64,000 nt of DNA, taken from assembly GCF_053078305.1 (NCBI RefSeq), contig NZ_CP166879.1. One strand, 5' to 3'. The notes under the pieces were generated by a model that was not told where the DNA came from, made no database searches, and saw only the letters and a program-made list of their open reading frames with translations. Below are positions 4,529-16,548 of this stretch, piece by piece. How positions within the stretch are numbered: position 1 is the first letter of the stretch; every line of letters begins with the position of its first letter. The translations under genes and the position numbers were made by a program.

Positions 4529-5653
4529 CTACAATTGTTTCCCGTTGTTTTTTAATTTTCTCATCAAAACCTCTGCAATCTCTGCAGGACTGGGTTGTTC
4601 AGCCATTTCAGCGGCTACCTGATCTGAACAGAAGCGTAGTGAATCATCATAAAGCAGGCGATTTACCAAATCACTAGTCAGTCCATGCTTGTCCGGAATA
4701 ATCCCACACCCACGCTTCGCAACAATTTCTGCATTAACAGAGCGATCTGCACCTTCGCCAAACACAATCTGTGGTATTCCACTATACAGCGCTGTCAGGG
4801 TATTACCTGCGCCACCGTGATGAATAAATCCATCAGCTCCATTAAGGAATACACCCATAGGTATCCAGTCAACCAGACGTACATTTGATGGTAGTTTTCG
4901 TAAACCAGTACGAGCATTTATTGCAAGTTGCAAAATGATATCAGCATCAACTTCATTTGCAGAATCCATAACCCATGAAATCAGCTCCAGACCATCAACC
5001 ATTGGTTTTACAGTGCCAAGGCTGATAAGTAAACGTTTCCGATCAGAATCCCTGTCCCACCATGTTTCCTTTACAGCACCTCCGTTATAAGGAATATATC
5101 TCATTGAGATAACCGGTTCTCCAGCATTTTTAAGAATGCTCATACTTGGGGGAGCAACATCAATCCATGCTAAATCACATAGTGGACCGCTGACTCCATG
5201 CCGCCTGTAAGCATTGCTTAAAGAACGGTTTAACATCTGAATATGGGCAGATGTATGCGCGAATCCAACAGCCAGCATCACTGAAGGAATTCTATATTTA
5301 GCAGCAACCAATGGGCCTGCCGGACCAAGAGGGGGATAGACTATTAAATCTGGCCTCCATTTTCCTGCAAAATTGATGAGGTTATCTGCCATTTCATCGC
5401 TAAAAAAAGAGAAATGACCAATAATATTACTTTTTTTCCTCAACTCTTCCTGATGGCGATATCCAGCCTCTGAATCTAAACCTGGAACTGCATCAAAAAC
5501 AACCAGTCCAGCTTCTGCTGCTTTATTCGCGAATTTGCCAGCGCTACTAATTACTACATCATGTCCAATTACACGAAAGGCCTGAGCCAGAGAAATCAAT
5601 GGGTATAACAAACCGTACAGCGGTGGGCCAATAAAAAGAATACGTTTTCGCAT
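4529..5653 (-). CDS. mchA: IroB-like glycosyltransferase (enterobactin C-glucosyltransferase), MchA
   Basis: 374 aa with GT1 glycosyltransferase-like features (N-terminal MRKRILFIGPP..., C-terminal HHGGAGNT motif). Confidence 0.8.
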   Translation of the reverse strand: MRKRILFIGPPLYGLLYPLISLAQAFRVIGHDVVISSAGKFANKAAEAGLVVFDAVPGLDSEAGYRHQEELRKKSNIIGHFSFFSDEMADNLINFAGKWRPDLIVYPPLGPAGPLVAAKYRIPSVMLAVGFAHTSAHIQMLNRSLSNAYRRHGVSGPLCDLAWIDVAPPSMSILKNAGEPVISMRYIPYNGGAVKETWWDRDSDRKRLLISLGTVKPMVDGLELISWVMDSANEVDADIILQLAINARTGLRKLPSNVRLVDWIPMGVFLNGADGFIHHGGAGNTLTALYSGIPQIVFGEGADRSVNAEIVAKRGCGIIPDKHGLTSDLVNRLLYDDSLRFCSDQVAAEMAEQPSPAEIAEVLMRKLKNNGKQL

Positions 5654-6367
5654 TAAAAAAGTCCGTCTTCTGCTTACCTGTTTATTTTTCTATCTCTAAG
5701 AAAACATAATTAATATTATTTTTATGTGAGCTTATGCACAAAAATAACCAAGTATATTATCTTCTGGTAGAGATACAGGATACAGTTTGTAGGAGCTTTC
5801 TTTTTTGAACAATGATTTGCAGGACAGTTATGCTAAACTAGCGGAATCAGTATCACAACAATAAATGACTGTTCATACCTGAAATTTGAATTAACAGGCA
5901 TCATGAATGTCAATAGTCTAAGCGGTGACTACTTATATCGCTTGCATAAATACTAAACACTGACTAGAAAAGTATTGGATAACCCCGTCACTAAAAGTAA
6001 CGCTTCGGTTATTTGCTCGGAATGTATTAACGCCAAGATTGTTAGCCGTTACGCCTTATATCACTGGCGCTGACAAATGTTTCTTTTCTAATTTACTGAA
6101 CCGGCGCAGACACGCAGGAAAGCACGCCGGCACCGGTGTAATGCCAGTTCTAATCAATAAGAATGGAATGACGAATCAGTCAGGAAGGGATAACAACCCG
6201 CTGCTGAACGGAAGGTATCAGCAGGAAGATGAACGGGAATATCGCCAGCACCAAGGGCAGGGCCGGGTTCCACAATACCAGCGCTGGCATTTTGCACATT
6301 GCCAGCGTACCGGCATTACAACACGTTTCATGCTGCTGCCCCCAGGATTCCTCGATTCGTTGCTACA

Positions 6368-6405
6368 TCCACTGCTCTACTTCACTTCCACTGCTCCACT
6401 TCACT
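6368..6405. repeat. Tandem 19-bp direct repeat (1 mismatch) spanning the alpA copy-1 stop codon
   Basis: tccactgctctacttcact / tccactgctccacttcact read directly. Confidence 0.75.
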
Positions 6406-6579
6406 TTTGTACCAGCGGCTGCTGCGCCCCAGTTTGATGGGTTTAGGGAAATGGCCTTCACTGATCAACTTGTAAAACCATTTGTCGGTCATACCGGTGA
6501 AACTGGTGATATAGTTCATGTCGATCAGGGAATTATCGGCACGCAGAAATACGCTGTCGTGGCTTGTTGTAGTCAACAT
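6382..6579 (-). CDS. alpA: AlpA-family (phage Vis/AlpA) transcriptional regulator, copy 1
   Basis: 65 aa; ...MTDKWFYKLISEGHFPKPIKLGRSSRWYKSEVEQWK matches the AlpA family signature. Confidence 0.8.
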   Translation of the reverse strand: MLTTTSHDSVFLRADNSLIDMNYITSFTGMTDKWFYKLISEGHFPKPIKLGRSSRWYKSEVEQWK

Positions 6580-6644
6580 GGTCAGAATGTCCTGTGAGAT
6601 TTATGAAGATTGTGCGAATGCGGGGAATCTGCTGAGCTGTGCTT

Positions 6645-6860
6645 TCAGAACTGGCCTGTTACGGGATACCAGGGATTACCGGCGGGGTAACGGGCTTCCG
6701 GATCATACACACCACGATTATCGCGGACAAAATCACTGAACGCCCATATCACCTCTTTAAGTATGTCTTCGCAGTCCGGTAAATGACGATCCAGCGCCAC
6801 ATCCCGGGTGGTACAGCTTTGATGCGCCCGGTGACACAAAGCCCGGATTGTTCCAGACAT
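6645..6860 (-). CDS. Hypothetical 71-aa protein between the Gp2-family gene and alpA
   Basis: ATG-initiated ORF co-oriented with flanking genes; weak ribosome-binding site. Confidence 0.3.
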   Translation of the reverse strand: MSGTIRALCHRAHQSCTTRDVALDRHLPDCEDILKEVIWAFSDFVRDNRGVYDPEARYPAGNPWYPVTGQF

Positions 6861-6964
6861 CCTGAATCAAACGCCCCAGATTAGGGGCGTCGAAATATGC
6901 CTCTCTGACCATTATATTCCGGCGTACAGGTAGCAGGTCTGAAGTGACAATGCGTCACCTGACG

Positions 6965-7531
6965 TTAAAAGTCACTACACCCAAGATGACGTTCAATGGC
7001 ACCATAGGATTCAATGTAAGCCCGGGCCGTCTGTTCCAGTACACCAGGCTCAGCGTTGTATGTGTTAGCTGCATCAAATACCAACGACAACACTTCAGGA
7101 TACACAACCAGATGTGTAATGGAGTTATCTTCACTCAATACTTTTCCCCACGCCTGCTCAATCAGATTTCTTAGAACCACCACCTCACGACTCTTACACC
7201 AGACATCGTTATTAAGTAGCAGCACCATAAGATAAGGAGTGGTATCGTTAGCCACAGCTTCCCTACTCCAGAGATAATATAAAGGGGTGGGCTCAACAGA
7301 TTGATCTTTACGTCGCTTACACTGCAAATATTCAGAAATGAGTCTATGCAGTTCACCAGTAAAATCAGCCATCAGAGAGGGAATGGCCTTATTAATACCC
7401 TGCCCTGGTATTAATTTAAATTGTAATAATTTAATTTCAGGATGTGTGGCTGCAGCCCGATACAGAGTTGCAAGGACACACTTTTGCCAGAGGGCGTTAC
7501 AGGAAAGCTTAACATTTGATTCTGTATACAT
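6965..7531 (-). CDS. Inovirus Gp2-like / YfjJ-YagK family protein, copy 1
   Basis: 188 aa with the hydrophobic core motif (YLMVLLLNNDVW) seen in YfjJ/YagK family; AAGGTG Shine-Dalgarno. Confidence 0.7.
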   Translation of the reverse strand: MYTESNVKLSCNALWQKCVLATLYRAAATHPEIKLLQFKLIPGQGINKAIPSLMADFTGELHRLISEYLQCKRRKDQSVEPTPLYYLWSREAVANDTTPYLMVLLLNNDVWCKSREVVVLRNLIEQAWGKVLSEDNSITHLVVYPEVLSLVFDAANTYNAEPGVLEQTARAYIESYGAIERHLGCSDF

Positions 7532-8009: not shown

Positions 8010-8816
8010 TTAAGTACTCGCACCTCCGCAGTCCTCAAACAAGTCTGGCTGGTAGCTGTAAACAGACTTCGTACATACCGCTCTGCAATAAATCCCCGTA
8101 CCACAGGCCTCACAGAACTTCTTCCCATGAAAAAACTGCTCACACATCACACAATGCCACTCCAGCACGACCGATAATGGCGATAAAAACATCGCCATAT
8201 CCTCAATGTAAGGGTGGGACTTTTCCGGATTCAGCACCACACAGTCCGCCTTCTGTTGCTCACTCAGGGCATGTAAATCATGCTCAAACCATGCCCCCTG
8301 AGCATCTGTCTGCAGAATCAACCGGCCATGGCAGGAAAGGCAGAAACAATGCCGGATATTTCTGCTGAGCGCAGAGTCGGCACTGATAATGTGTTCACCC
8401 GGCGTGATCCCCAGCCCCGTTTTTATACCGTTCATTCTGCTACCCCCCTCCTCACTGAAGCGTCCGGTCTGGCAGTGTGTGCAGTACCGCTCCCCATAAT
8501 AATCGTGGTGACATTGTCTGCAGTGCCAGCTGGCTTTACGCACCACGGGTAAGGCATCCGGGACGAATTGCTGCAGACGTTTAATCAACTGTATTTCTCT
8601 GCGTTCCGGCCTGACATAAGGACATTGCTGCGCGTGCTCCGTCAGCCCTTCGTCAGCGTGTTCAAACCAGGGCCGTTCAGTGTCGTATTGCGGGTGGTAT
8701 CTGAGTGCACTGCCGCAAAGGTGGCAGGTGTAGCGGTCGTAAGGCGCAGTCTGTGCGGTACGGGCCCCCGTCAGACGTCCGTTGCCATCAAGAGCGAGAA
8801 AGGATTTTGCGTACAT
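8010..8816 (-). CDS. Cys/His-rich protein with internally duplicated zinc-ribbon-like motifs
   Basis: 268 aa; two halves each carrying CxxC ... WFEH ... WHCxxC ... CxxC patterns; GAGGAA Shine-Dalgarno. Confidence 0.65.
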   Translation of the reverse strand: MYAKSFLALDGNGRLTGARTAQTAPYDRYTCHLCGSALRYHPQYDTERPWFEHADEGLTEHAQQCPYVRPERREIQLIKRLQQFVPDALPVVRKASWHCRQCHHDYYGERYCTHCQTGRFSEEGGSRMNGIKTGLGITPGEHIISADSALSRNIRHCFCLSCHGRLILQTDAQGAWFEHDLHALSEQQKADCVVLNPEKSHPYIEDMAMFLSPLSVVLEWHCVMCEQFFHGKKFCEACGTGIYCRAVCTKSVYSYQPDLFEDCGGAST

Positions 8817-9075: not shown

Positions 9076-9645
9076 TCAACTCCGGCTACAGCCAAAATTG
9101 CGCTCACCGGTGCCGCGAGCTTTGGTATGCTCCTTCGCCAGATAGCCAGAACGTTCCAGCACCTGCTGAAAGCCGGTTTCATCATCGCGTTCCAGCCACA
9201 CCGCTGGCTTGTCAGGAAAATGTGCCAGCGTGTCATAACGTCCGGCATCCACTCCCAGGGCACTGCACCAGGCCTGTTTAATAATCCCGGCCAGTGACCC
9301 CGGAGCGCGGTAATCGCCGGCACGACACCAGGTATCCCGGTTGACCAGCAGCAGCAGGTGATAGTGTTTTTTGCCTTTAAGCTCCCCGAACTCCCGGGCC
9401 CAGGCGTAATGCAGGGTCGAGGAATGCACGCGTTTACCTTCCCGATGCTTACGTTTCTGGTAAGCGTCGATTCGGGCTTTCAGGGCATTGATGAAGCGGG
9501 ATATCACAGCCGCGTCCGTTGCTGCCGGTACATCCGGGAGACGCAGATCAACCCGCAATGCCGTCAGACGGGGATGAACATCCAGTGCGTGCCGCACCGT
9601 CTCACGAATACGTTGCTGCCAGAAGGGGTTGTATTTGTAGGTCAT
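9076..9645 (-). CDS. Inovirus Gp2-like / YfjJ-YagK family protein, copy 2
   Basis: 189 aa; KKHYHLLLLVNRDTW motif; GGAGA Shine-Dalgarno. Confidence 0.7.
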   Translation of the reverse strand: MTYKYNPFWQQRIRETVRHALDVHPRLTALRVDLRLPDVPAATDAAVISRFINALKARIDAYQKRKHREGKRVHSSTLHYAWAREFGELKGKKHYHLLLLVNRDTWCRAGDYRAPGSLAGIIKQAWCSALGVDAGRYDTLAHFPDKPAVWLERDDETGFQQVLERSGYLAKEHTKARGTGERNFGCSRS

Positions 9646-9849
9646 GGTTAAATCTCCGTATGGTTTCGTTCATACGGATTAACCACGCCGTAAAAAATGC
9701 GCAGAGTCCCTGAAGTGATCTCCAACCAGGCAATATCTCAGGCACTCTGAGATAACCCGAACGGTCGTCTCCGGACTGACGGTTGAATTTTCAGCGTTGT
9801 TTTTTTAATGTAAAAAACCGATTACGGATAAGGCTGTGAGGAGGGAGTT

Positions 9850-10050
9850 ATGGTGATACGCAAAAAGAAGTGCTGGGACTGTGGAAACGCGATTACTCAT
9901 AATACTGTGTGTTGCCCGTATTGTGGTTCTGTCGACCCCTTCGGCTATTACCGGAATACAGACCGTATCGTTACTATACTGCTGGCACTGATTATTGTGG
10001 TCCTGCTGACTACTGTCAGCGTCAGTGTGTATATACTGTGTAGCTGGTGA
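9850..10050 (+). CDS. Small zinc-ribbon membrane protein
   Basis: 66 aa; CWDCG ... CCPYCG followed by one hydrophobic helix; strong GAGGAGGG Shine-Dalgarno. Confidence 0.5.
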   Translation: MVIRKKKCWDCGNAITHNTVCCPYCGSVDPFGYYRNTDRIVTILLALIIVVLLTTVSVSVYILCSW

Positions 10051-10464
10051 GATAACGGTTCATGTATCCCCTGAGCTGACAGTGTACCGGGTATATTAAG
10101 CGTAACCGACAGGTTCTCCTTCATACCATATTAAATTTTTCCAGGTATTGCCGCTGCCTTATTTCGTCTCATACAGGAAAACTCGTCTGGGTTTCTGACA
10201 AATACGTGAAACTCACAGCCCCTCAATATCAACCACACGCTGTAAGCCGGTAATACCTGAAAATCAGCCCATTACCGCCCACGCCTCCGGCACCATTCCC
10301 TTTAGATTTCGAATTCTTTGTTGTCGCTATACCGCTTAACGTTCCCGGTATTATCCTGGTTCCCGACAACAGGAACATATTCAGCTTTTAATAACCTGAG
10401 AAGAGCCAATAAGAATCACAAAGCGGATAACACCTGGCGCGATGCAGTTGTGATTACCGAACGC

Positions 10465-10662
10465 TCAGATGACATATTTCCAGACTGAAGCGGGAACACG
10501 ATCGTAAAGCTTGTTCATTGTCAGTTCTGCCAGCCAGTGATCAACCACAGAGTTGAAGGCTTCCAGTTCCGCAGAGGTAAGTTTATAACGCGTGTGGGAA
10601 ATCACTTTTTCCAGCGTCTCCCGGGATGAACAACGACGGAACTGCTTTGGTTTTAACTTCCA
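10465..10662 (-). pseudogene. Gene remnant (frame-disrupted small ORF)
   Basis: Protein-like 65-codon frame (...ETLEKVISHTRYKLTSAELEAFNSVVDHWLAELTMNKLYDRVPASVWKYVI) without a start codon; the nearby ATG is in another frame. Confidence 0.3.
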
Positions 10663-11372
10663 TTAGCCTCTCATCACTTTATGCTGCAATTAACGTGATA
10701 CTGTCAGCATACCGCCAGACTGGCATTCTGGTACCCACCCCAAACTCATTACTCCCGAGCCACCACTTAACCGGTCTCTCAGACTGTCACTCACCAGGTC
10801 GGATATGTTTACCGCTCAGACGGATGCTTAATGCACTCTGTTCACGTACATTGCAGATACGTTTTATATACGCGGGTTATACGCCAGCTATCAGGGATAG
10901 CGCAGTCTGTTGCTACTGCGTTCTCATCATGCCCACTGATCACACTCACCGTGTTTATTTCACATATATGAACTCATGTATTTGATCTCATGTGTTTGAT
11001 CTCTCTTATATATTTATAATACCAATCAGACAGTCTTATCCCATCGGTGATACCTGTCACCTGCCCACCGGACACGGTCTGCCCCATCGTAACCGCCCCG
11101 TAAATAACTCTGCAATTATCAGAACGCCAGTTTTCCCCTCTTCCTCACGAAAATCATCCCTTCTTTATCGCGCGCGCGTGCGGAAGCATCGTTTCGTAAC
11201 AACCACCCGGCATACCGGTACGGCTCAGCCACCGTAACCTCCCCGTTTATCTCCTGGCGGTCACATTCCCGATTATTTTTTACGTTTCTCCCCGGTTGTT
11301 ATGCCGGTGAAGGTGGTGCGTTGTTTTCATGACCACACCGGCTGGTTTAACAACATCCGGAGGAACATTCTC

Positions 11373-11579
11373 ATGATCACCCCAGTTTCACTGATGGATG
11401 ACCAGATGGTCGACATGGCATTTATCACTCAACTGACCGGCCTGACCGATAAGTGGTTTTACAAACTCATCAAGGATGGTGACTTTCCTGCGCCCATCAA
11501 AATGGGCCGCAGCTCCCGATGGCTGAAAAGCGAAGTGGAAGCCTGGCTGCAGGCGCGTATTGCACAGTCCCGTCCGTAA
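11373..11579 (+). CDS. alpA: AlpA-family transcriptional regulator, copy 2
   Basis: 68 aa from MITPVSLMDDQ...; TDKWFYKLIKDGDFPAPIKMGRSSRWLKSEVEAW; GGAGG Shine-Dalgarno. Confidence 0.8.
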   Translation: MITPVSLMDDQMVDMAFITQLTGLTDKWFYKLIKDGDFPAPIKMGRSSRWLKSEVEAWLQARIAQSRP

Positions 11580-11659
11580 TTCTTAACCGTTCATCTGCAG
11601 CAGACGCAGTCTCCGGCCTGCCGGCGGCGTTCTGCTGCCTGTTATCCCCCGTGAGGAAT

Positions 11660-12268
11660 ATGAAAATGAAACCACAGTATCAGACCCGTTACGAGCTGCT
11701 CCACGAAAGCTACCAGAAATGGCTGACCGGCTTCACCCGGCACGCCGTATCCTGGGGCGTGTGTCATCCGAATATCTACTACTTCCATAATCTGACGCCC
11801 GGGTGGGTGTCATTCAATGGTGAAAAACCGGAGATTGCCATCGTACCCCAGAGTCTGCACCGGCTGATGTATGGTCCGGACAAACGGACCACGCCGCCCC
11901 TGGATGATGATCTGATAGTGAATTTATGCACCAGTGAACATCTGCTGGTTCATCATCCGATGCTGGAAGGCATTCTCCTGTCTGAATGTGAACGTCTGAG
12001 GCAGCGTTCGCTGGCAAATAAACTGATCAGCCTCTTCCGTCAGTTTGGTGGCACGGAGTTGCGCCTCAAACTGGTCTGGCTTTGCTGGCTTGATTTAATG
12101 ACCGGAAACTGCCTTGACGACTGGACGGAGAATCTGAAACGGAAATCAGAAAAAGAGCTGGAGGAATGGATCATCAACCGTCAGAAGCAGAGCGCAGCAC
12201 TGACGGATCTGATGGATCAGTACGTGCTCCTGGCATACCGCACAACGGTTGACGATAAGCGCACCTGA
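11660..12268 (+). CDS. Hypothetical protein (about 203 aa) immediately downstream of alpA copy 2
   Basis: ORF with GAGGAA Shine-Dalgarno, start at ATG 11660 or 11666; no recognisable family. Confidence 0.6.
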   Translation: MKMKPQYQTRYELLHESYQKWLTGFTRHAVSWGVCHPNIYYFHNLTPGWVSFNGEKPEIAIVPQSLHRLMYGPDKRTTPPLDDDLIVNLCTSEHLLVHHPMLEGILLSECERLRQRSLANKLISLFRQFGGTELRLKLVWLCWLDLMTGNCLDDWTENLKRKSEKELEEWIINRQKQSAALTDLMDQYVLLAYRTTVDDKRT

Positions 12269-12491
12269 TGCCAGTTGTTTCAGGGAAGCTGGTATCCGGG
12301 CAGGGTGCCAGGGCTGACTGAACGGCCTGTCTGCCTGCCGTTTCGCTCTCCGTGCGTTCTGTCACACGCTGCACCTGAACGCCGGACTGCGGGCACGCAG
12401 ACAGGAAAGACGCAGGCTGGAACTTCTGACCGGCGGGTATCAGTTATATGCCTGTTGATTCATCACCACCACGCAGTTCCTGAGCTTTAGT

Positions 12492-12529
12492 TCATCACCG
12501 ATATTCATACATCTGAATATCGGTGATGA
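12492..12529. terminator. Perfect 16-bp inverted repeat (6-nt loop) between convergent genes
   Basis: tcatcaccgatattca tacatc tgaatatcggtgatga read directly. Confidence 0.6.
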
Positions 12530-12589
12530 AATCCCCATAATAATCAATCATCTAAGTCTGAAGCATAATAGAGAAAAACTGCTCACCGG

Positions 12590-14074
12590 TTACTTCGCTC
12601 TCAGCTTATTGTAGTGATAACCCGAGGTAAAAATACCAGAGACATCAGACAACTTTAAACTGGCTATCTGGGGAAGCAGAACATACATGGTTTTTCCTTC
12701 CGGCACGACAGAAAGCCTGAACTGAGATTCAAGAATGTTCAGCAATGCGTTCAGTTTTTTCCTGTTTCTGAACCGGCCCGGGCCACACTGGAGAATATAA
12801 TTTTTCCTGACACGGGGCGGGCATTCTCCGCGGCACTCCTCAATGAGCCAGTCGAACAGCTCCTCGGCGTCCTTCTGCTGCAGTTCAGATTCATTAGGTA
12901 ACGCAAATAATTTTTTATATTCATCTGTGTACCACGAACTTATTACGACAGCAGACGTCATGATATCGGCAGAGATTTTCCCTTCACCATAGCTGAAATA
13001 CTGAAATAACGCTGCAATTCTTGCAATGTTTTCTGTTTTTTTTGAAACATGTCCCCGAAACGGGCTTAAGGGTCCGGAAGGGGATAAATCCTGCTCCAGA
13101 ACATTATAGTGCTCAATAAATATTTTTTGCGCTTCAGGCGAAAAATGCAGACAATACCGTTCATCCTCACTGGATTTTTCAATACTGCCTCTGGCCAGTT
13201 CCATTAATCGTTCATGAAATGCCGTTAATGATCCTCCCGGAATCACAGCTCCATTAATAAAGCGTTTCCCCTGCGTGGTTGCAGGTTTACTGATAAGACA
13301 ACGGGCAAGAAAACCACTGTCCCTGGCAACAGAACCTTTTCGCTCCATATATCGGTCAAAAAGACCGGGTTGCACCATGAGGGATAACGTCATTCTGGCA
13401 TTTTCAATCATCTGTTCGGGTTCATTCTTTCTGTCCACAGACAATACAGAGCCATCCCACATTTTGTTAATAAAAGGCAACTCAGACAGGGTATATCCAT
13501 CAAATATAATACCGGCTTCATCTGACATAATACCCACTGAACGCCATTTACCACAAAGCTGATTCTTAATTGCCGCAGTCGTGGCATCATTAAAAATGAA
13601 TTTATACCTCACAGGTTCTTCCGCACTGTTTTTCTGAAGTACTTCCAGTTGTCTGAGGGTTTCTGACTCATCCGCGCCTTTGCGGAGTTCTTTATTCAGT
13701 TTTGACAACAATGCTTTTTTCTGAGCCTTTAAAAGCTCTTCCTTGTTTTTCCAGACAGCCAGTTCACTTTTGTATCTGGAATATAACTGCATCTCCTGCT
13801 GGTACAGGGGCTTCATTAATAATTTGTCCACTGCGGTTTTTCGTTCTCCGGACTCGGCAAGCGTCAGGAAAAAAAGAGAGACCGGCCCCCGCAGTGTATT
13901 CAGTCTGCAGACATCAATCAGATTCTGGCAGACAAGTGAAACAGCGCCCAGGGCAGACGCTGCCACAAGCCCAAGGGGAGCCTGCGTAATTTGCTGAGCT
14001 TCAATAACGGCATCACGAATGAGTGGAGGCAGCGAACTCAGGGGAAACTCATCACAAGGCTGACCGAATGACAT
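12590..14074 (-). CDS. YfjI-like protein (DUF3987-type, P4/CP4-like element protein)
   Basis: 494 aa from MSFGQPCDEF... (ATG 14074, GAGG Shine-Dalgarno); family assignment from recall of CP4-57 yfjI. Confidence 0.55.
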   Translation of the reverse strand: MSFGQPCDEFPLSSLPPLIRDAVIEAQQITQAPLGLVAASALGAVSLVCQNLIDVCRLNTLRGPVSLFFLTLAESGERKTAVDKLLMKPLYQQEMQLYSRYKSELAVWKNKEELLKAQKKALLSKLNKELRKGADESETLRQLEVLQKNSAEEPVRYKFIFNDATTAAIKNQLCGKWRSVGIMSDEAGIIFDGYTLSELPFINKMWDGSVLSVDRKNEPEQMIENARMTLSLMVQPGLFDRYMERKGSVARDSGFLARCLISKPATTQGKRFINGAVIPGGSLTAFHERLMELARGSIEKSSEDERYCLHFSPEAQKIFIEHYNVLEQDLSPSGPLSPFRGHVSKKTENIARIAALFQYFSYGEGKISADIMTSAVVISSWYTDEYKKLFALPNESELQQKDAEELFDWLIEECRGECPPRVRKNYILQCGPGRFRNRKKLNALLNILESQFRLSVVPEGKTMYVLLPQIASLKLSDVSGIFTSGYHYNKLRAK

Positions 14075-15303
14075 AGTAACCTCACTACACACAGATATAA
14101 AAGTACTGCAATTCTGGCTATTAATAGCAAAAATAGCAGTCAAATCAATATGAGGTAAAAATTTTTGTTGCTTTAATGGTTAAATAATAACCACAGTGTG
14201 TTTTGCTGCTGAAGAAAGACAAAATGAATCTGTGTGTCCCCTCCTTCCCTTCAGAGCACATCCACTATTCAAATTTTACACAACCACGTACGAACAAAAA
14301 GCATCATCCCGGGTATTGCAGATACCGGTTTCCTGCCGGGAAGAATCATAAACAGAACACCGGGAATAACGCCTTCAGGAATCCCCCCCTCCTGAAGAAG
14401 AATAAAATAAAGAAGACTACAGTTCCTGCACTGAATGCTGAGTACAATATTCTATGGACAGGATGACATATTTATAAATAACAAAAACCATTTAATACTG
14501 ATACATCAATAAAATACTTCCTCCCTGCTGACGCAGATAAAATGCACCATTTTTTCTTCAAATACTTCTGTATAATCGCCAGCCAATGATGAGAATGGAT
14601 TAAAATAACACTTCTTCGACAAACACAAAAACAGCCTTCATTTTACATCATCATCCAGTTTCAGTTAACCCCGGACGAGCGACAGCGTTTCAGTACAGGA
14701 ATTAAAAGCCAGCTTTTGCTCAGTAAAAACACACTCAACTAATAATATCTCAGCAGATATTATCCTGACCAGGACACCTCACATTACTGAATTCTCTTCC
14801 GACAGTATCACTGCACAAATAAAAAAGAACTGGATAAATATTCAGACCGGAAGAATGGTGTCACAAAAGCATTTAATCATTACGCATGACCAGGAAGGGA
14901 AACACTTAACCACATGGTATCAACAGATATCATTACGTGTGCACTCTTATAAAAAACACACAGAAGAAGTAAGATAATTATAAACGTAAATTTAATATCT
15001 CCCACTGACATCTCCCCCACAATACACTGAAAAATACTCACAGCAGTAAACACAGACACACCTGATAATCATGCAGCCGATAAATATTTTCCCCTTTACG
15101 GAGAAATCAGCCTGCTGTTTAACAATAACGGCGTATTTTCATGGAAGGAGATCACCCAGTAACGGATAAGTCCTGATCTCCTTCATGTTAATACGCAACA
15201 ATCCCATCGATTCAAAACAATTTCAGACAGATATTATCTCCGTGAATCCCCCGCCACCTTTCCGGTGCGCGGGGTTTTGTCTTTTTTCACCGGGAATACA
15301 TGT

Positions 15304-16176
15304 ATGAATCCGTCTGATGCCATTGAGGCAATTGAAAAACCGCTCTCCTCCCTGCCTTACTCGCTTTCCCGTCACATCCTGGAACATCTGCGCAAACTCA
15401 CCCGTCACGAACCAGTGATTGGCATTATGGGTAAAAGCGGGGCCGGTAAATCCTCACTCTGTAATGCACTGTTTCAGGGGGAGGTCACCCCGGTCAGTGA
15501 TGTTCACACCGGCACCCGGGAAGTACGGCGCTTCCGTCTGAGTGGCCACGGTCACAGCATGGTTATCACTGACCTGCCCGGGGTGGGCGAGAGCCGGGAC
15601 AGGGATGCAGAGTATGAGGCCCTGTACCGTGACATTCTGCCTGAACTGGACCTGGTACTGTGGCTGATTAAAGCCGATGACCGTGCCCTGTCTGTGGATG
15701 AGTATTTCTGGCGACACATCCTGCACCGGGGACATCAGCGGGTACTGTTTGTGGTGACGCAGGCCGACAAAACGGAGCCCTGCCATGAATGGGATATGGC
15801 CGGTATTCAGCCTTCTCCTGCACAGGCACAGAATATTCGCGAAAAAACGGAGGCGGTATTCCGTCTGTTCCGGCCCGTACATCCGGTTGTGGCCGTATCG
15901 GCCCGCACCGGCTGGGAACTGGATACGCTGGTCAGTGCGCTCATGACAGCGCTTCCCGACCATGCCGCCAGTCCCCTGATGACCCGACTGCAGGACGAGC
16001 TGCGCACGGAATCTGTCCGGTCTCAGGCCCGTGAACAGTTTACCGGTGCGGTGGACCGGATATTTGACACGGCGGAGAGCGTCTGTATTGCCTCTGTTGC
16101 ACGCACGGTTCTGCGTGCCGTCCGTGACTCGGTGGTCTCTGTTGCCCGCGCTGTATGGAACTGGATTTTCTTCTGA
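15304..16176 (+). CDS. yeeP: YeeP/YfjP/YkfA-family GTPase
   Basis: 290 aa; P-loop GIMGKSGAGKSS; directly upstream of flu as in CP4-44. Confidence 0.8.
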   Translation: MNPSDAIEAIEKPLSSLPYSLSRHILEHLRKLTRHEPVIGIMGKSGAGKSSLCNALFQGEVTPVSDVHTGTREVRRFRLSGHGHSMVITDLPGVGESRDRDAEYEALYRDILPELDLVLWLIKADDRALSVDEYFWRHILHRGHQRVLFVVTQADKTEPCHEWDMAGIQPSPAQAQNIREKTEAVFRLFRPVHPVVAVSARTGWELDTLVSALMTALPDHAASPLMTRLQDELRTESVRSQAREQFTGAVDRIFDTAESVCIASVARTVLRAVRDSVVSVARAVWNWIFF

Positions 16177-16295
16177 ACACTCTGCCAGGGGAAATGCCTG
16201 ATTACATTGCGTTAACCAACTGAAAACATGACACAAACCCCTCATCCCCCTCCTGTTTCTCTTGCGTGACCGCTCTGCTGTCAATAGAATAAAAC

Positions 16296-16331
16296 GATCG
16301 ATAAAACAGGTATCGATCGTTACTATCGATC
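16296..16331 (+). promoter_or_regulatory. Ag43 phase-variation switch: three closely spaced GATC (Dam) sites in the OxyR-binding region
   Basis: GATC at 16296, 16315 and 16328, about 220-250 bp upstream of the flu start. Confidence 0.7.
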
Positions 16332-16548
16332 GTTTATAGTGGTTAATGGTCTGCGAAAAGGCAGCTGAATCTCTTCATCATGCAGAACGGAATTGCACAC
16401 AACGGACTGATACTTCTCTGGCGGATGAGAGAGGGGAAGCATTTATGTCCGGGAAAAACCACTTTATCTGACCATGCTGTTTTGTACCTGCCGGTATCCA
16501 CATTTGTGGGTACCGGCTTTTTTATTCACCCTCTGTAAGGAAAAGCTG

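Follow-up and report, generated by a model that had tools for sequence, protein, structure and literature searches.

The Aec62-family gene beside alpA2 is a conserved backbone gene of CP4/SRL-type islands in Enterobacterales

The alpA2 locus and its partner gene

We analyzed a 64,000-nucleotide (nt) stretch of DNA (here called the window) from contig NZ_CP166879.1 of NCBI RefSeq assembly GCF_053078305.1. The window is an Escherichia coli pathogenicity island, and two genes lie next to each other on its forward strand. The first, alpA2 (11373-11579, +), encodes an AlpA/Vis/excisionase-type winged-helix DNA-binding protein of 68 amino acids (aa). The second is an open reading frame (ORF) of the Aec62/WP_000804452.1 family (11666-12268, +; RefSeq start ATG at 11666) that encodes a protein of 200 aa, with a mass of 23.6 kDa and an isoelectric point (pI) of 6.7. 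The ORF is a genuine, constrained gene that encodes a cytoplasmic protein, and it forms part of the backbone, as opposed to the cargo, of CP4/SRL-type integrative islands in Enterobacterales. With a Vis-type AlpA gene it forms a fixed two-gene unit, which is part of a same-strand module that also encodes Zn-ribbon and Gp2/YagK-like (HUH motif) proteins.

The ORF product is 100% identical over 200 columns to UniProt entry Q5K5T0, "Aec62," and is the same protein as RefSeq WP_000804452.1, and so it belongs to this family. Both names are bare labels with no function attached; RefSeq annotates the same coding sequence (CDS) in strains 11368 and VG38-53E1 as "hypothetical protein." The UniProt form of Aec62 has 249 aa because it begins at an upstream ATG (11519) that lies within alpA2, a start that is not conserved in other genera. 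Such over-extended N termini occur among the database entries for the family (the 249-aa form, 11519-12268, as well as proteins P0001, P0003, and P0128), as do the spurious names "Malate transporter" and "Secretoglobin family protein," which have no evidential value.

An earlier reading of this DNA from its sequence only (the sequence-only reading) had placed a 203-aa ORF with its own Shine-Dalgarno sequence 80 bp after alpA2. The Shine-Dalgarno sequence, GAGGAA, is indeed there (11653-11658, +; read from the sequence), and AAGGAA is found at the equivalent place in other genera. The spacing of 80 nt is correct for an alternative ATG at 11660, but the length needs amendment: the frame, whose stop codon is at 12266-12268, has 202 aa from ATG 11660 and 200 aa from the RefSeq start. 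ATG 11666 is 7 nt after GAGGAA and is the conserved start across other genera, whereas ATG 11660 is merely 1 nt after it. The peptide that had been singled out, LCTSEHLLVHHPMLEG, and the charged C-terminal region are both present in the ORF; among 44 family sequences, the HH of that peptide is not conserved in the distant branches.

AlpA2 matched the Pfam family PF05930 (Phage_AlpA) with an i-Evalue of 1e-08 over positions 3 to 51 of the 51 in the model, which makes it a member of that family, and it also matched HTH_17 (9e-07) and PHROG 66 (excisionase/regulator; 8e-10). RefSeq names it "helix-turn-helix transcriptional regulator," and AlpA homologues from other genera bear the same precomputed Phage_AlpA match. 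When all Protein Data Bank (PDB) chains were searched with phmmer (E ≤ 1), the relatives of AlpA2 were 8c3t, an "AlpA family phage regulatory protein," and TorI (1z4h); the rest of the matches were noise. No Pseudomonas aeruginosa AlpA chain was among these sequence matches, and membership of AlpA2 in that antiterminator family was rejected. AlpA of the E. coli K-12 island CP4-57 is 23% identical to AlpA2 over 60 aa (BLASTP), and a tblastn search of K-12 CP4-57 with AlpA2 gave no match at 1e-2. On these grounds AlpA2 was not accepted as an orthologue of the CP4-57 AlpA/SRL Rox subgroup.

The description of alpA2 as a second AlpA regulator agrees with the Pfam and PHROG matches and with the presence of a first copy, alpA1 (6382-6579, −), whose 65-aa product is 65% identical to AlpA2 over 54 aa. 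alpA1 abuts microcin cargo, and no relative of the ORF adjoins it. The ORF may have been lost beside alpA1, or alpA1 may be a different kind of AlpA.

In contrast to AlpA2, the ORF could be assigned to no described family (Pfam-A, NCBIfam, PHROG, or PADLOC). Pfam gave no match to it even at E ≤ 10, and none at E ≤ 0.001 to any of 44 family members; there were no NCBIfam, PHROG, or PADLOC families among its matches, and neither phmmer nor a profile search connected the ORF family to any PDB sequence. An AlphaFold2 model built from a broad alignment was confident (pLDDT 87.1, pTM 0.86). It predicts an N-terminal alpha/beta part (residues 1 to 70) with a helix-helix-beta-hairpin-helix arrangement at residues 8 to 69, then a less confident linker, and then a C-terminal six-helix bundle (residues 100 to 193). 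A Foldseek search of AFDB50 with this model returned only members of the family, and there was no significant structural match to any solved fold. For residues 100 to 193 a death fold (CARD/PYD/DED), taken as a six-helix bundle of ∼90 aa, was considered as a possibility. Two structural neighbors were noted, the Salmonella protein A0A603XHA2 (290 aa) and A0A6I2I7I8 (410 aa), both with extra domains. The sequence-only reading, which saw no obvious family, was therefore right on this point at the levels of both sequence and fold. It had also named homology to a P4 or CP4 structural or replication protein as a finding that would overturn it; we looked for such homology and found none.

Conservation of the gene and its linkage to alpA

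DNA corresponding to alpA2 plus the ORF was present in 3,324 of 5,426 complete E. coli genomes (∼61%) when coverage of at least 80% was required, with a median of 2 places per positive genome. The exact ORF protein occurs on 390 contigs, and its 90% cluster has 4,113 members. Homologues that are 55 to 95% identical are found in E. coli, Salmonella, Klebsiella, Yersinia, Hafnia, Cronobacter, Serratia, Pantoea, and Citrobacter, and homologues that are 29 to 64% identical are found across Enterobacterales. Full-length homologues (174 to 200 aa) include proteins from Klebsiella, Salmonella, Yersinia, Hafnia, Serratia, Pectobacterium, Providencia, and Photorhabdus. A HMMER profile search of 1.84 billion representative proteins gave only 122 matches, mostly fragments, with a few full-length relatives, down to ∼23 to 30% identity. 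There were no informative domain fusions among these 122 matches. The sole fusion, P0128 (319 aa), is a chimeric ORF in which phosphotriesterase-like sequence is joined to the C-terminal half of an Aec62-family protein.

A scan of one genome per GTDB species yielded 42 loci, all from Enterobacterales save three metagenome-assembled genomes (MAGs) labelled otherwise. The contigs of these three MAGs, labelled Clostridiales, Bacillota, and Collinsella (L025, L026, and L042), carry enterobacterial island genes (alpA, the ORF, and a gene for a YeeP-like GTPase) and almost certainly reflect binning contamination. Phage records lack the ORF family, apart from one unverified 3.6-kb contig. No true match was found in plasmid records: the "plasmid" matches include megabase-sized records, and the small record NZ_CP070137.1 is a linear unnamed record. 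Given that sole unverified phage contig and the doubtful plasmid records, we rejected a phage or plasmid origin for the family.

Twelve columns were invariant in 44 family sequences (G102, L104, S106, E107, C108, R110, L111, L120, L139, C140, W141, and Y186), and their invariance holds down to 23% identity. The patch that includes G-x-L-x-S-E-C-x-R-L and L-C-W is the only candidate functional site that we could point to, as judged from the sequences. Length was kept across 51 homologues, most of which have 177 to 203 aa. Against orthologues that are 46 to 63% identical, the ratio of nonsynonymous to synonymous substitution rates (dN/dS) was 0.09 to 0.27 where dS was measurable (i.e., not saturated).

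It could be supposed that the ORF is the remnant of a decayed gene or a reading frame open by chance, since the names given to it in UniProt and RefSeq are only "hypothetical" or spurious and its annotated 249-aa Aec62 form is over-extended into alpA. That supposition is hardly credible. The conserved length, the twelve columns that do not vary even among distant relatives, a dN/dS well below 1, the Shine-Dalgarno sequence conserved before the gene, and the confident AlphaFold model all oppose it, and the conservation data refute it. Evidence of decay was the other finding that, according to the sequence-only reading, would overturn it; we saw no sign of decay.

Two other forms of the gene were observed. 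In Brenneria (L028), a degenerate 93-aa ORF (6580-6861) resembling the C-terminal half of the family (MEGVLLGQLC...IWLCSYNLMLG) stands in tandem after an intact gene and looks like a decayed duplicate. In Salmonella there is a subfamily of 194 to 195 aa, ∼30% identical to the ORF product, whose genes (7001-7588 in L007 to L010; 9031-9588 in L017) follow a Gp2-like fragment, not alpA. Within Salmonella enterica this subfamily comprises very many lineages that are 75 to 88% identical, and the region of L017 bears both subfamilies.

We compared the loci by running tblastn with the window proteins on all fetched loci and by clustering the neighboring ORFs all against all. Of 40 species-level loci that could be assessed, 39 have an AlpA gene upstream of the ORF and in the same orientation, 37 of them directly and 2 with a Zn-ribbon gene between. 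The spacer between alpA and the ORF is 84 to 107 nt in most loci and 86 nt in the window. Thus, to the question of whether the pair travels together in other genomes, which the sequence-only reading had raised, both the species-level loci and the complete E. coli genomes answer that it does. In the same loci the ORF family diverges more than AlpA does, with identities of 29 to 64% versus 64 to 84%.

Of 45 loci, 43 have a Gp2/YagK-like ORF no more than 4.5 kb away, almost always in the same orientation; an HxH plus hydrophobic (HUH) motif occurs in 45 of the 55 Gp2/YagK-like ORFs. Zn-ribbon genes are also frequent neighbors. The placement of the Gp2-like gene varies (upstream of alpA in some loci, downstream in others), whereas the adjacency of alpA and the ORF is constant.

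The cargo that lies 3′ of the ORF homologues differs by genus: BREX in Klebsiella, Dnd in Yersinia and Brenneria, and elsewhere a LlaJI-type restriction system or genes for VgrG and a type VI secretion system (T6SS). Because the downstream content changes completely between genera, the ORF is the last conserved gene ahead of a cargo/defense hotspot. The cargo stretches that we noted (L003, 9772-16600; L004, 8794-15069; L028, 7107-9823; L057, 9394-12597; and L059, 4596-9547) contained brxA/B/C; genes for DndB, PAPS reductase, an SMC-like protein, and DndE; a LlaJI-type system with an AAA_5 ATPase; and VgrG with DUF4123/SMI1.

On the other side of the module lies, in other genera, a divergently oriented and rapidly evolving gene for a protein of 304 to 337 aa, beyond which the GTPase backbone begins (∼25 loci; e.g., 6284-7198, −, in L003 and 5526-6539, −, in L004). 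This gene had no Pfam or NCBIfam match and is absent from the window. By eye, from sequence, its product has an apparent ribbon-helix-helix-like C-terminal motif, e.g., KKVINTYVQKDIKEKLDMLAKKNGRKINEELEVIIMNAW, and it could be a candidate island repressor. In K-12 CP4-57, yfjH holds its position. A remote paralogy of the ORF with the divergent upstream "U300" gene was considered and rejected (hhalign probability, 0.3%).

The alpA leader, the intercistronic hairpin, and the island setting

When the 200 nt preceding alpA were aligned (MAFFT) for 21 loci of many genera, ∼100 nt before the alpA ATG proved to be conserved, whereas the DNA beyond is unrelated. In the window this leader/promoter region is at 11274-11372 (+). 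Its elements are an invariant TTTTTTAC and two repeats, CCGG-N8-CCGG and CCGG-N15-CCGGAGG, the latter of which takes in the alpA Shine-Dalgarno sequence; the region may serve as a promoter/operator or as a structured 5′ untranslated region. No match to the sigma-70 consensus was found in the window. Upstream of alpA there was no LexA box in any locus beyond chance CTG-N10-CAG matches, and for this reason we dropped SOS control of the module as a candidate.

In nearly all genera the spacer between alpA and the ORF folds into a two-tier stem-loop. In most genera this hairpin has an inner stem, TCCGG/CCGGA, followed by GGUUUUCU; the E. coli version, taken from the minimum free energy fold, is a GC-rich two-tier stem-loop at 11597-11638 (+). 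In a plain MAFFT alignment 79% of the cells pair, and sliding the 3′ partners lowers this to 50% or less; the pairs at one stem position are GC (15), CG (9), AU (1), and UA (1). With a covariance model, 37 loci each yielded one copy of the element directly 5′ of the ORF. In the alignment fitted with that model (41 matches), 81.7% of the cells pair, a share that is no higher than 48.5% after sliding, and the covariation score of 0.29 compares with 0.095 at most; such a fitted alignment leans to structure, and part of the covariation count rests on it. The numbers of G-U and A-C pairs (41 versus 15) are as expected of RNA of the sense (+) strand. Weaker copies of the element (E values of 1.5e-4 to 4.7e-3 with the covariance model) occur just before the Gp2-like gene in four loci (L047, 7143-7233; L048, 7151-7226; L051, 6898-6973; and L052, 7157-7232), which suggests a repeated intercistronic element in one operon.

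Does the hairpin terminate transcription? The features of an intrinsic terminator, a GC-rich stem-loop plus a U-tract, are complete in the copy from Klebsiella (L003), which has TCCGG-loop-CCGGA and then GGTTTTCTGC and was flagged as terminator-like, and they are visible in most genera. In the window, the tract after the stem is GTTCTGCTGC, a degenerate T-tract, and the copy was not flagged as terminator-like (the spacer folds with −26.9 kcal/mol). Only ∼20 to 25 nt part the hairpin from the Shine-Dalgarno sequence of the ORF, so a separate promoter for the ORF is unlikely. A terminator-like hairpin in this position argues for attenuated read-through over a separate promoter activated by AlpA. 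As there is no room for a promoter of its own between the hairpin and the Shine-Dalgarno sequence, the ORF would be made by read-through: a transcript from the conserved alpA promoter/leader would probably pass the hairpin in part, and the ORF would be expressed below the level of AlpA. The idea that AlpA2 itself acts on the hairpin, like the P. aeruginosa AlpA antiterminator, was demoted to speculation, there being no detectable relationship between the proteins.

The order of genes around the pair was read from the RefSeq annotation of a 99.3% identical stretch in strain VG38-53E1. Microcin H47 genes are followed by alpA1; then by YagK/YfjJ, Zn-ribbon, and "inovirus Gp2 family" genes; then by an Hha-like gene, alpA2, the ORF ("hypothetical protein"), and a convergent gene for a "YfjI family protein." Beyond yfjI is a backbone of CP4 type with genes for a YeeP-like GTPase, Ag43, IrmA, DUF905, DUF932, antirestriction, RadC/JAB, DUF987, CbeA/CbtA, DUF5983, DUF957, and DUF4942, after which come the kps capsule genes. 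The two Gp2/YagK-like proteins of the window are encoded at 6965-7531 and 9076-9645, and the Zn-ribbon protein is encoded at 8010-8816. There are no tRNA genes in the window. Two intervals have no annotated gene in the matching RefSeq record, 10615-11273 (∼0.65 kb, upstream of the alpA2 leader) and 14075-15303 (∼1.2 kb, from yfjI to the GTPase gene); Rfam gave no match at E ≤ 1 anywhere in 9500-16500, these gene-free stretches included.

The convergent neighbor, described as YfjI-like in the sequence-only reading, is yfjI (12590-14074, −), which encodes a helicase-like DUF3987 protein. The RefSeq product name, a match to PHROG 2373 ("DNA helicase," 3e-82), and 53% identity to K-12 YfjI place it in the YfjI/DUF3987 family, and its convergent orientation is confirmed. 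It is a neighbor and is outside the conserved pair.

Between the ORF and yfjI is a perfect inverted repeat (12491-12530, no strand assigned) with 17-nt arms (12491-12507 and 12514-12530) and a 6-nt loop. Its folding z-scores are −6.4 and −7.0; it occurs nowhere else in the window and lacks a T-run. The pair had been said to end at a perfect 16-bp hairpin. The hairpin is perfect, but its arms have 17 nt and it does not end the pair: it is 223 nt past the ORF stop codon, outside the coordinates given for the pair, and 60 nt from the stop codon of yfjI, and in other genera we found no equivalent repeat in the 450 nt that follow the homologous gene. For these reasons we rejected the palindrome as a conserved end of the pair; it belongs to the junction with yfjI, which is specific to E. 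coli. Possible explanations for it are a bidirectional 3′ structure, a site for protein binding, or a scar left by a rearrangement.

Possible roles of the ORF and likeness to known systems

The constant company that the ORF keeps bears on what its product might do. It probably acts in the life cycle of the island, where it would control or execute excision, rolling-circle replication, or mobilization. We tentatively favor, at somewhat less than even confidence, a place for it in that program as an accessory or partner of AlpA and/or of the HUH initiator. Several observations count against this reading. No homology was found that links the protein to excision, replication, or regulation; its model has no recognizable DNA-binding, nuclease, NTPase, or other catalytic fold; and a pI of 6.7 is untypical for a DNA-binding protein. 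Divergent subfamilies lack an adjacent alpA (the Salmonella type of 194 to 195 aa in L007 to L010, and also L056 to L058). As to the hairpin, its folding z-scores of −1.5 to −2.1 are unremarkable alone, the structure-fitted alignment contributes to the covariation count, and with a degenerate U-tract attenuation may not operate in the window. The counterpart of the ORF in the Shigella SRL island (see below) is matched by position only.

Of the more specific possibilities, one is that the Aec62 family is a new fold with a particular undescribed activity, either as a sensor-switch for excision or replication with Vis-type AlpA or as an anti-phage or counter-defense effector at the cargo hotspot, with the S-E-C-x-R/L-C-W patch as the active or interaction site. 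We consider this unlikely. A broader version of the second idea, that the ORF is an accessory gene of warfare at the cargo entrance (an anti-phage, anti-defense, or host- or helper-interference effector comparable to the small early genes of satellite P4), appeared to us improbable to a lesser degree. The position of the ORF is suggestive: it is the last conserved gene before variable defense cargo (BREX, Dnd, the LlaJI-type restriction-modification system, and T6SS), and the corresponding slot in K-12 CP4-57 holds the anti-bacteriophage gene abpA along with abpB and rnlAB. The family also diverges much faster than AlpA in the same loci and is split into many lineages in Salmonella. However, the ORF is present whatever the cargo is, tied to alpA and not to any particular defense system; it has no PADLOC match; and a dN/dS below 0.3 where measurable gives no sign of diversifying selection.

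It is likewise doubtful that the ORF encodes a replication accessory (a loader, an origin-binding protein, or an ssDNA [single-stranded DNA]-handling protein) for the Gp2/YagK-like HUH initiator, one that occupies the slot of YfjI in CP4-57 and is too diverged to recognize. The Gp2/YagK-like ORF that accompanies it in the same orientation at 43 of 45 loci, the weaker hairpin copies before the Gp2-like gene, which suggest one operon, and the presence in CP4-57 of alpA, yfjI, and the Gp2-like yfjJ with no relative of the ORF are what this proposal would lead one to see. Yet the order relative to Gp2 is variable while that of alpA and the ORF is constant, and the window and SRL-type islands carry the ORF and YfjI together, so the two are not simple alternatives. 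In addition, the model contains no NTPase, OB-fold, or primase-like feature. Very unlikely, in our estimation, is a toxin-antitoxin-like or addiction pair, despite the constant pairing of a small DNA-binding gene with a larger conserved gene downstream. Type II toxin-antitoxin genes are small and tightly coupled or overlapping; here the genes are 84 to 107 nt apart in most loci, and the 86-nt spacer of the window holds the conserved hairpin, terminator-like in other genera. Moreover, AlpA2 belongs to the Vis/Xis/TorI family, and the island already has a CbtA/CbeA pair. Truncated or partial copies of the ORF are common in assemblies, mostly labelled partial, which fits contig ends; they put little weight on this possibility either way.

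Databases and published maps of islands already contain the sequence of the ORF, labelled hypothetical or "no similarity," without a description of the family. Searches of the literature for the accession, "Aec62," and the island gene names returned catalogue listings and no functional study; in a survey of islands of Shiga toxin-producing E. coli, Aec62 is a mere list entry (PMC6174562). New here are the counts that put numbers on the linkage to AlpA and to the HUH module, the finding that the family is confined to Enterobacterales, its orphan fold, and the conserved leader and intercistronic hairpin. CP4/SRL-type islands bring virulence, resistance, and phage-defense cargo to most E. coli strains and to many other Enterobacterales, and their activation, copying, and movement are poorly understood. 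The ORF is among the most constant genes of these islands, often present in two copies, and is thus, for the best-studied bacterium, a "known unknown." Should it prove to control excision, replication, or mobilization, it would offer a handle on the spread of the cargo; otherwise, it remains one more hypothetical gene of the backbone. That CP4-type islands contain such a gene would not surprise a specialist, yet the gene is a clean and very widespread target for functional work, and the alpA leader and the intercistronic hairpin are concrete elements that can be tested.

Among known systems, P4 Vis, KplE1 TorI, and other Xis-type directionality factors and regulators are those that AlpA2 appears to resemble, as judged from the Phage_AlpA match and from the sequence matches to 8c3t and TorI (1z4h). 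The P4 genes sid, psu, delta, and alpha do not accompany it. The AlpA of P. aeruginosa is a processive antiterminator (PMC7969949, PMC9371919). Its likeness to the window is superficial, consisting of the shared name and a terminator-like hairpin upstream of the gene to be expressed; because no P. aeruginosa AlpA chain is among the PDB matches of AlpA2, the name is no evidence for antitermination here.

The CP4-57 island of K-12 has the order alpA-yfjI-yfjJ, then defense cargo (the anti-bacteriophage gene abpA with abpB, and rnlAB), and then yfjP. As in the window, a gene of the AlpA family heads a same-strand module with a Gp2/YagK-like gene, and in both, defense cargo and then the YfjP/YeeP GTPase backbone follow. 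The differences are that yfjI is directly after alpA in CP4-57 but convergent in the window, and that the two AlpA proteins are just 23% identical. We looked for an equivalent of the ORF in CP4-57 and found no relative.

The closest likeness in gene order is to the SRL island of Shigella flexneri, which has the same order as the window: a Gp2-like gene, Hha, AlpA, an unknown ORF, the YeeP GTPase, and Ag43, on to CbeA/CbtA. The published table for this island lists orf39 as Gp2, orf40 as Hha, orf41 as a "Vis (P4)"-like AlpA, orf42 as having "no similarity," orf46 as YeeP, and orf47 as Ag43; its listed excision factor is rox (orf3), a different gene from the Vis-like orf41 (PMC6980539). Because the order of the SRL island is that of the window, orf42 is very probably the same gene as the ORF, known since 2001 and never studied.

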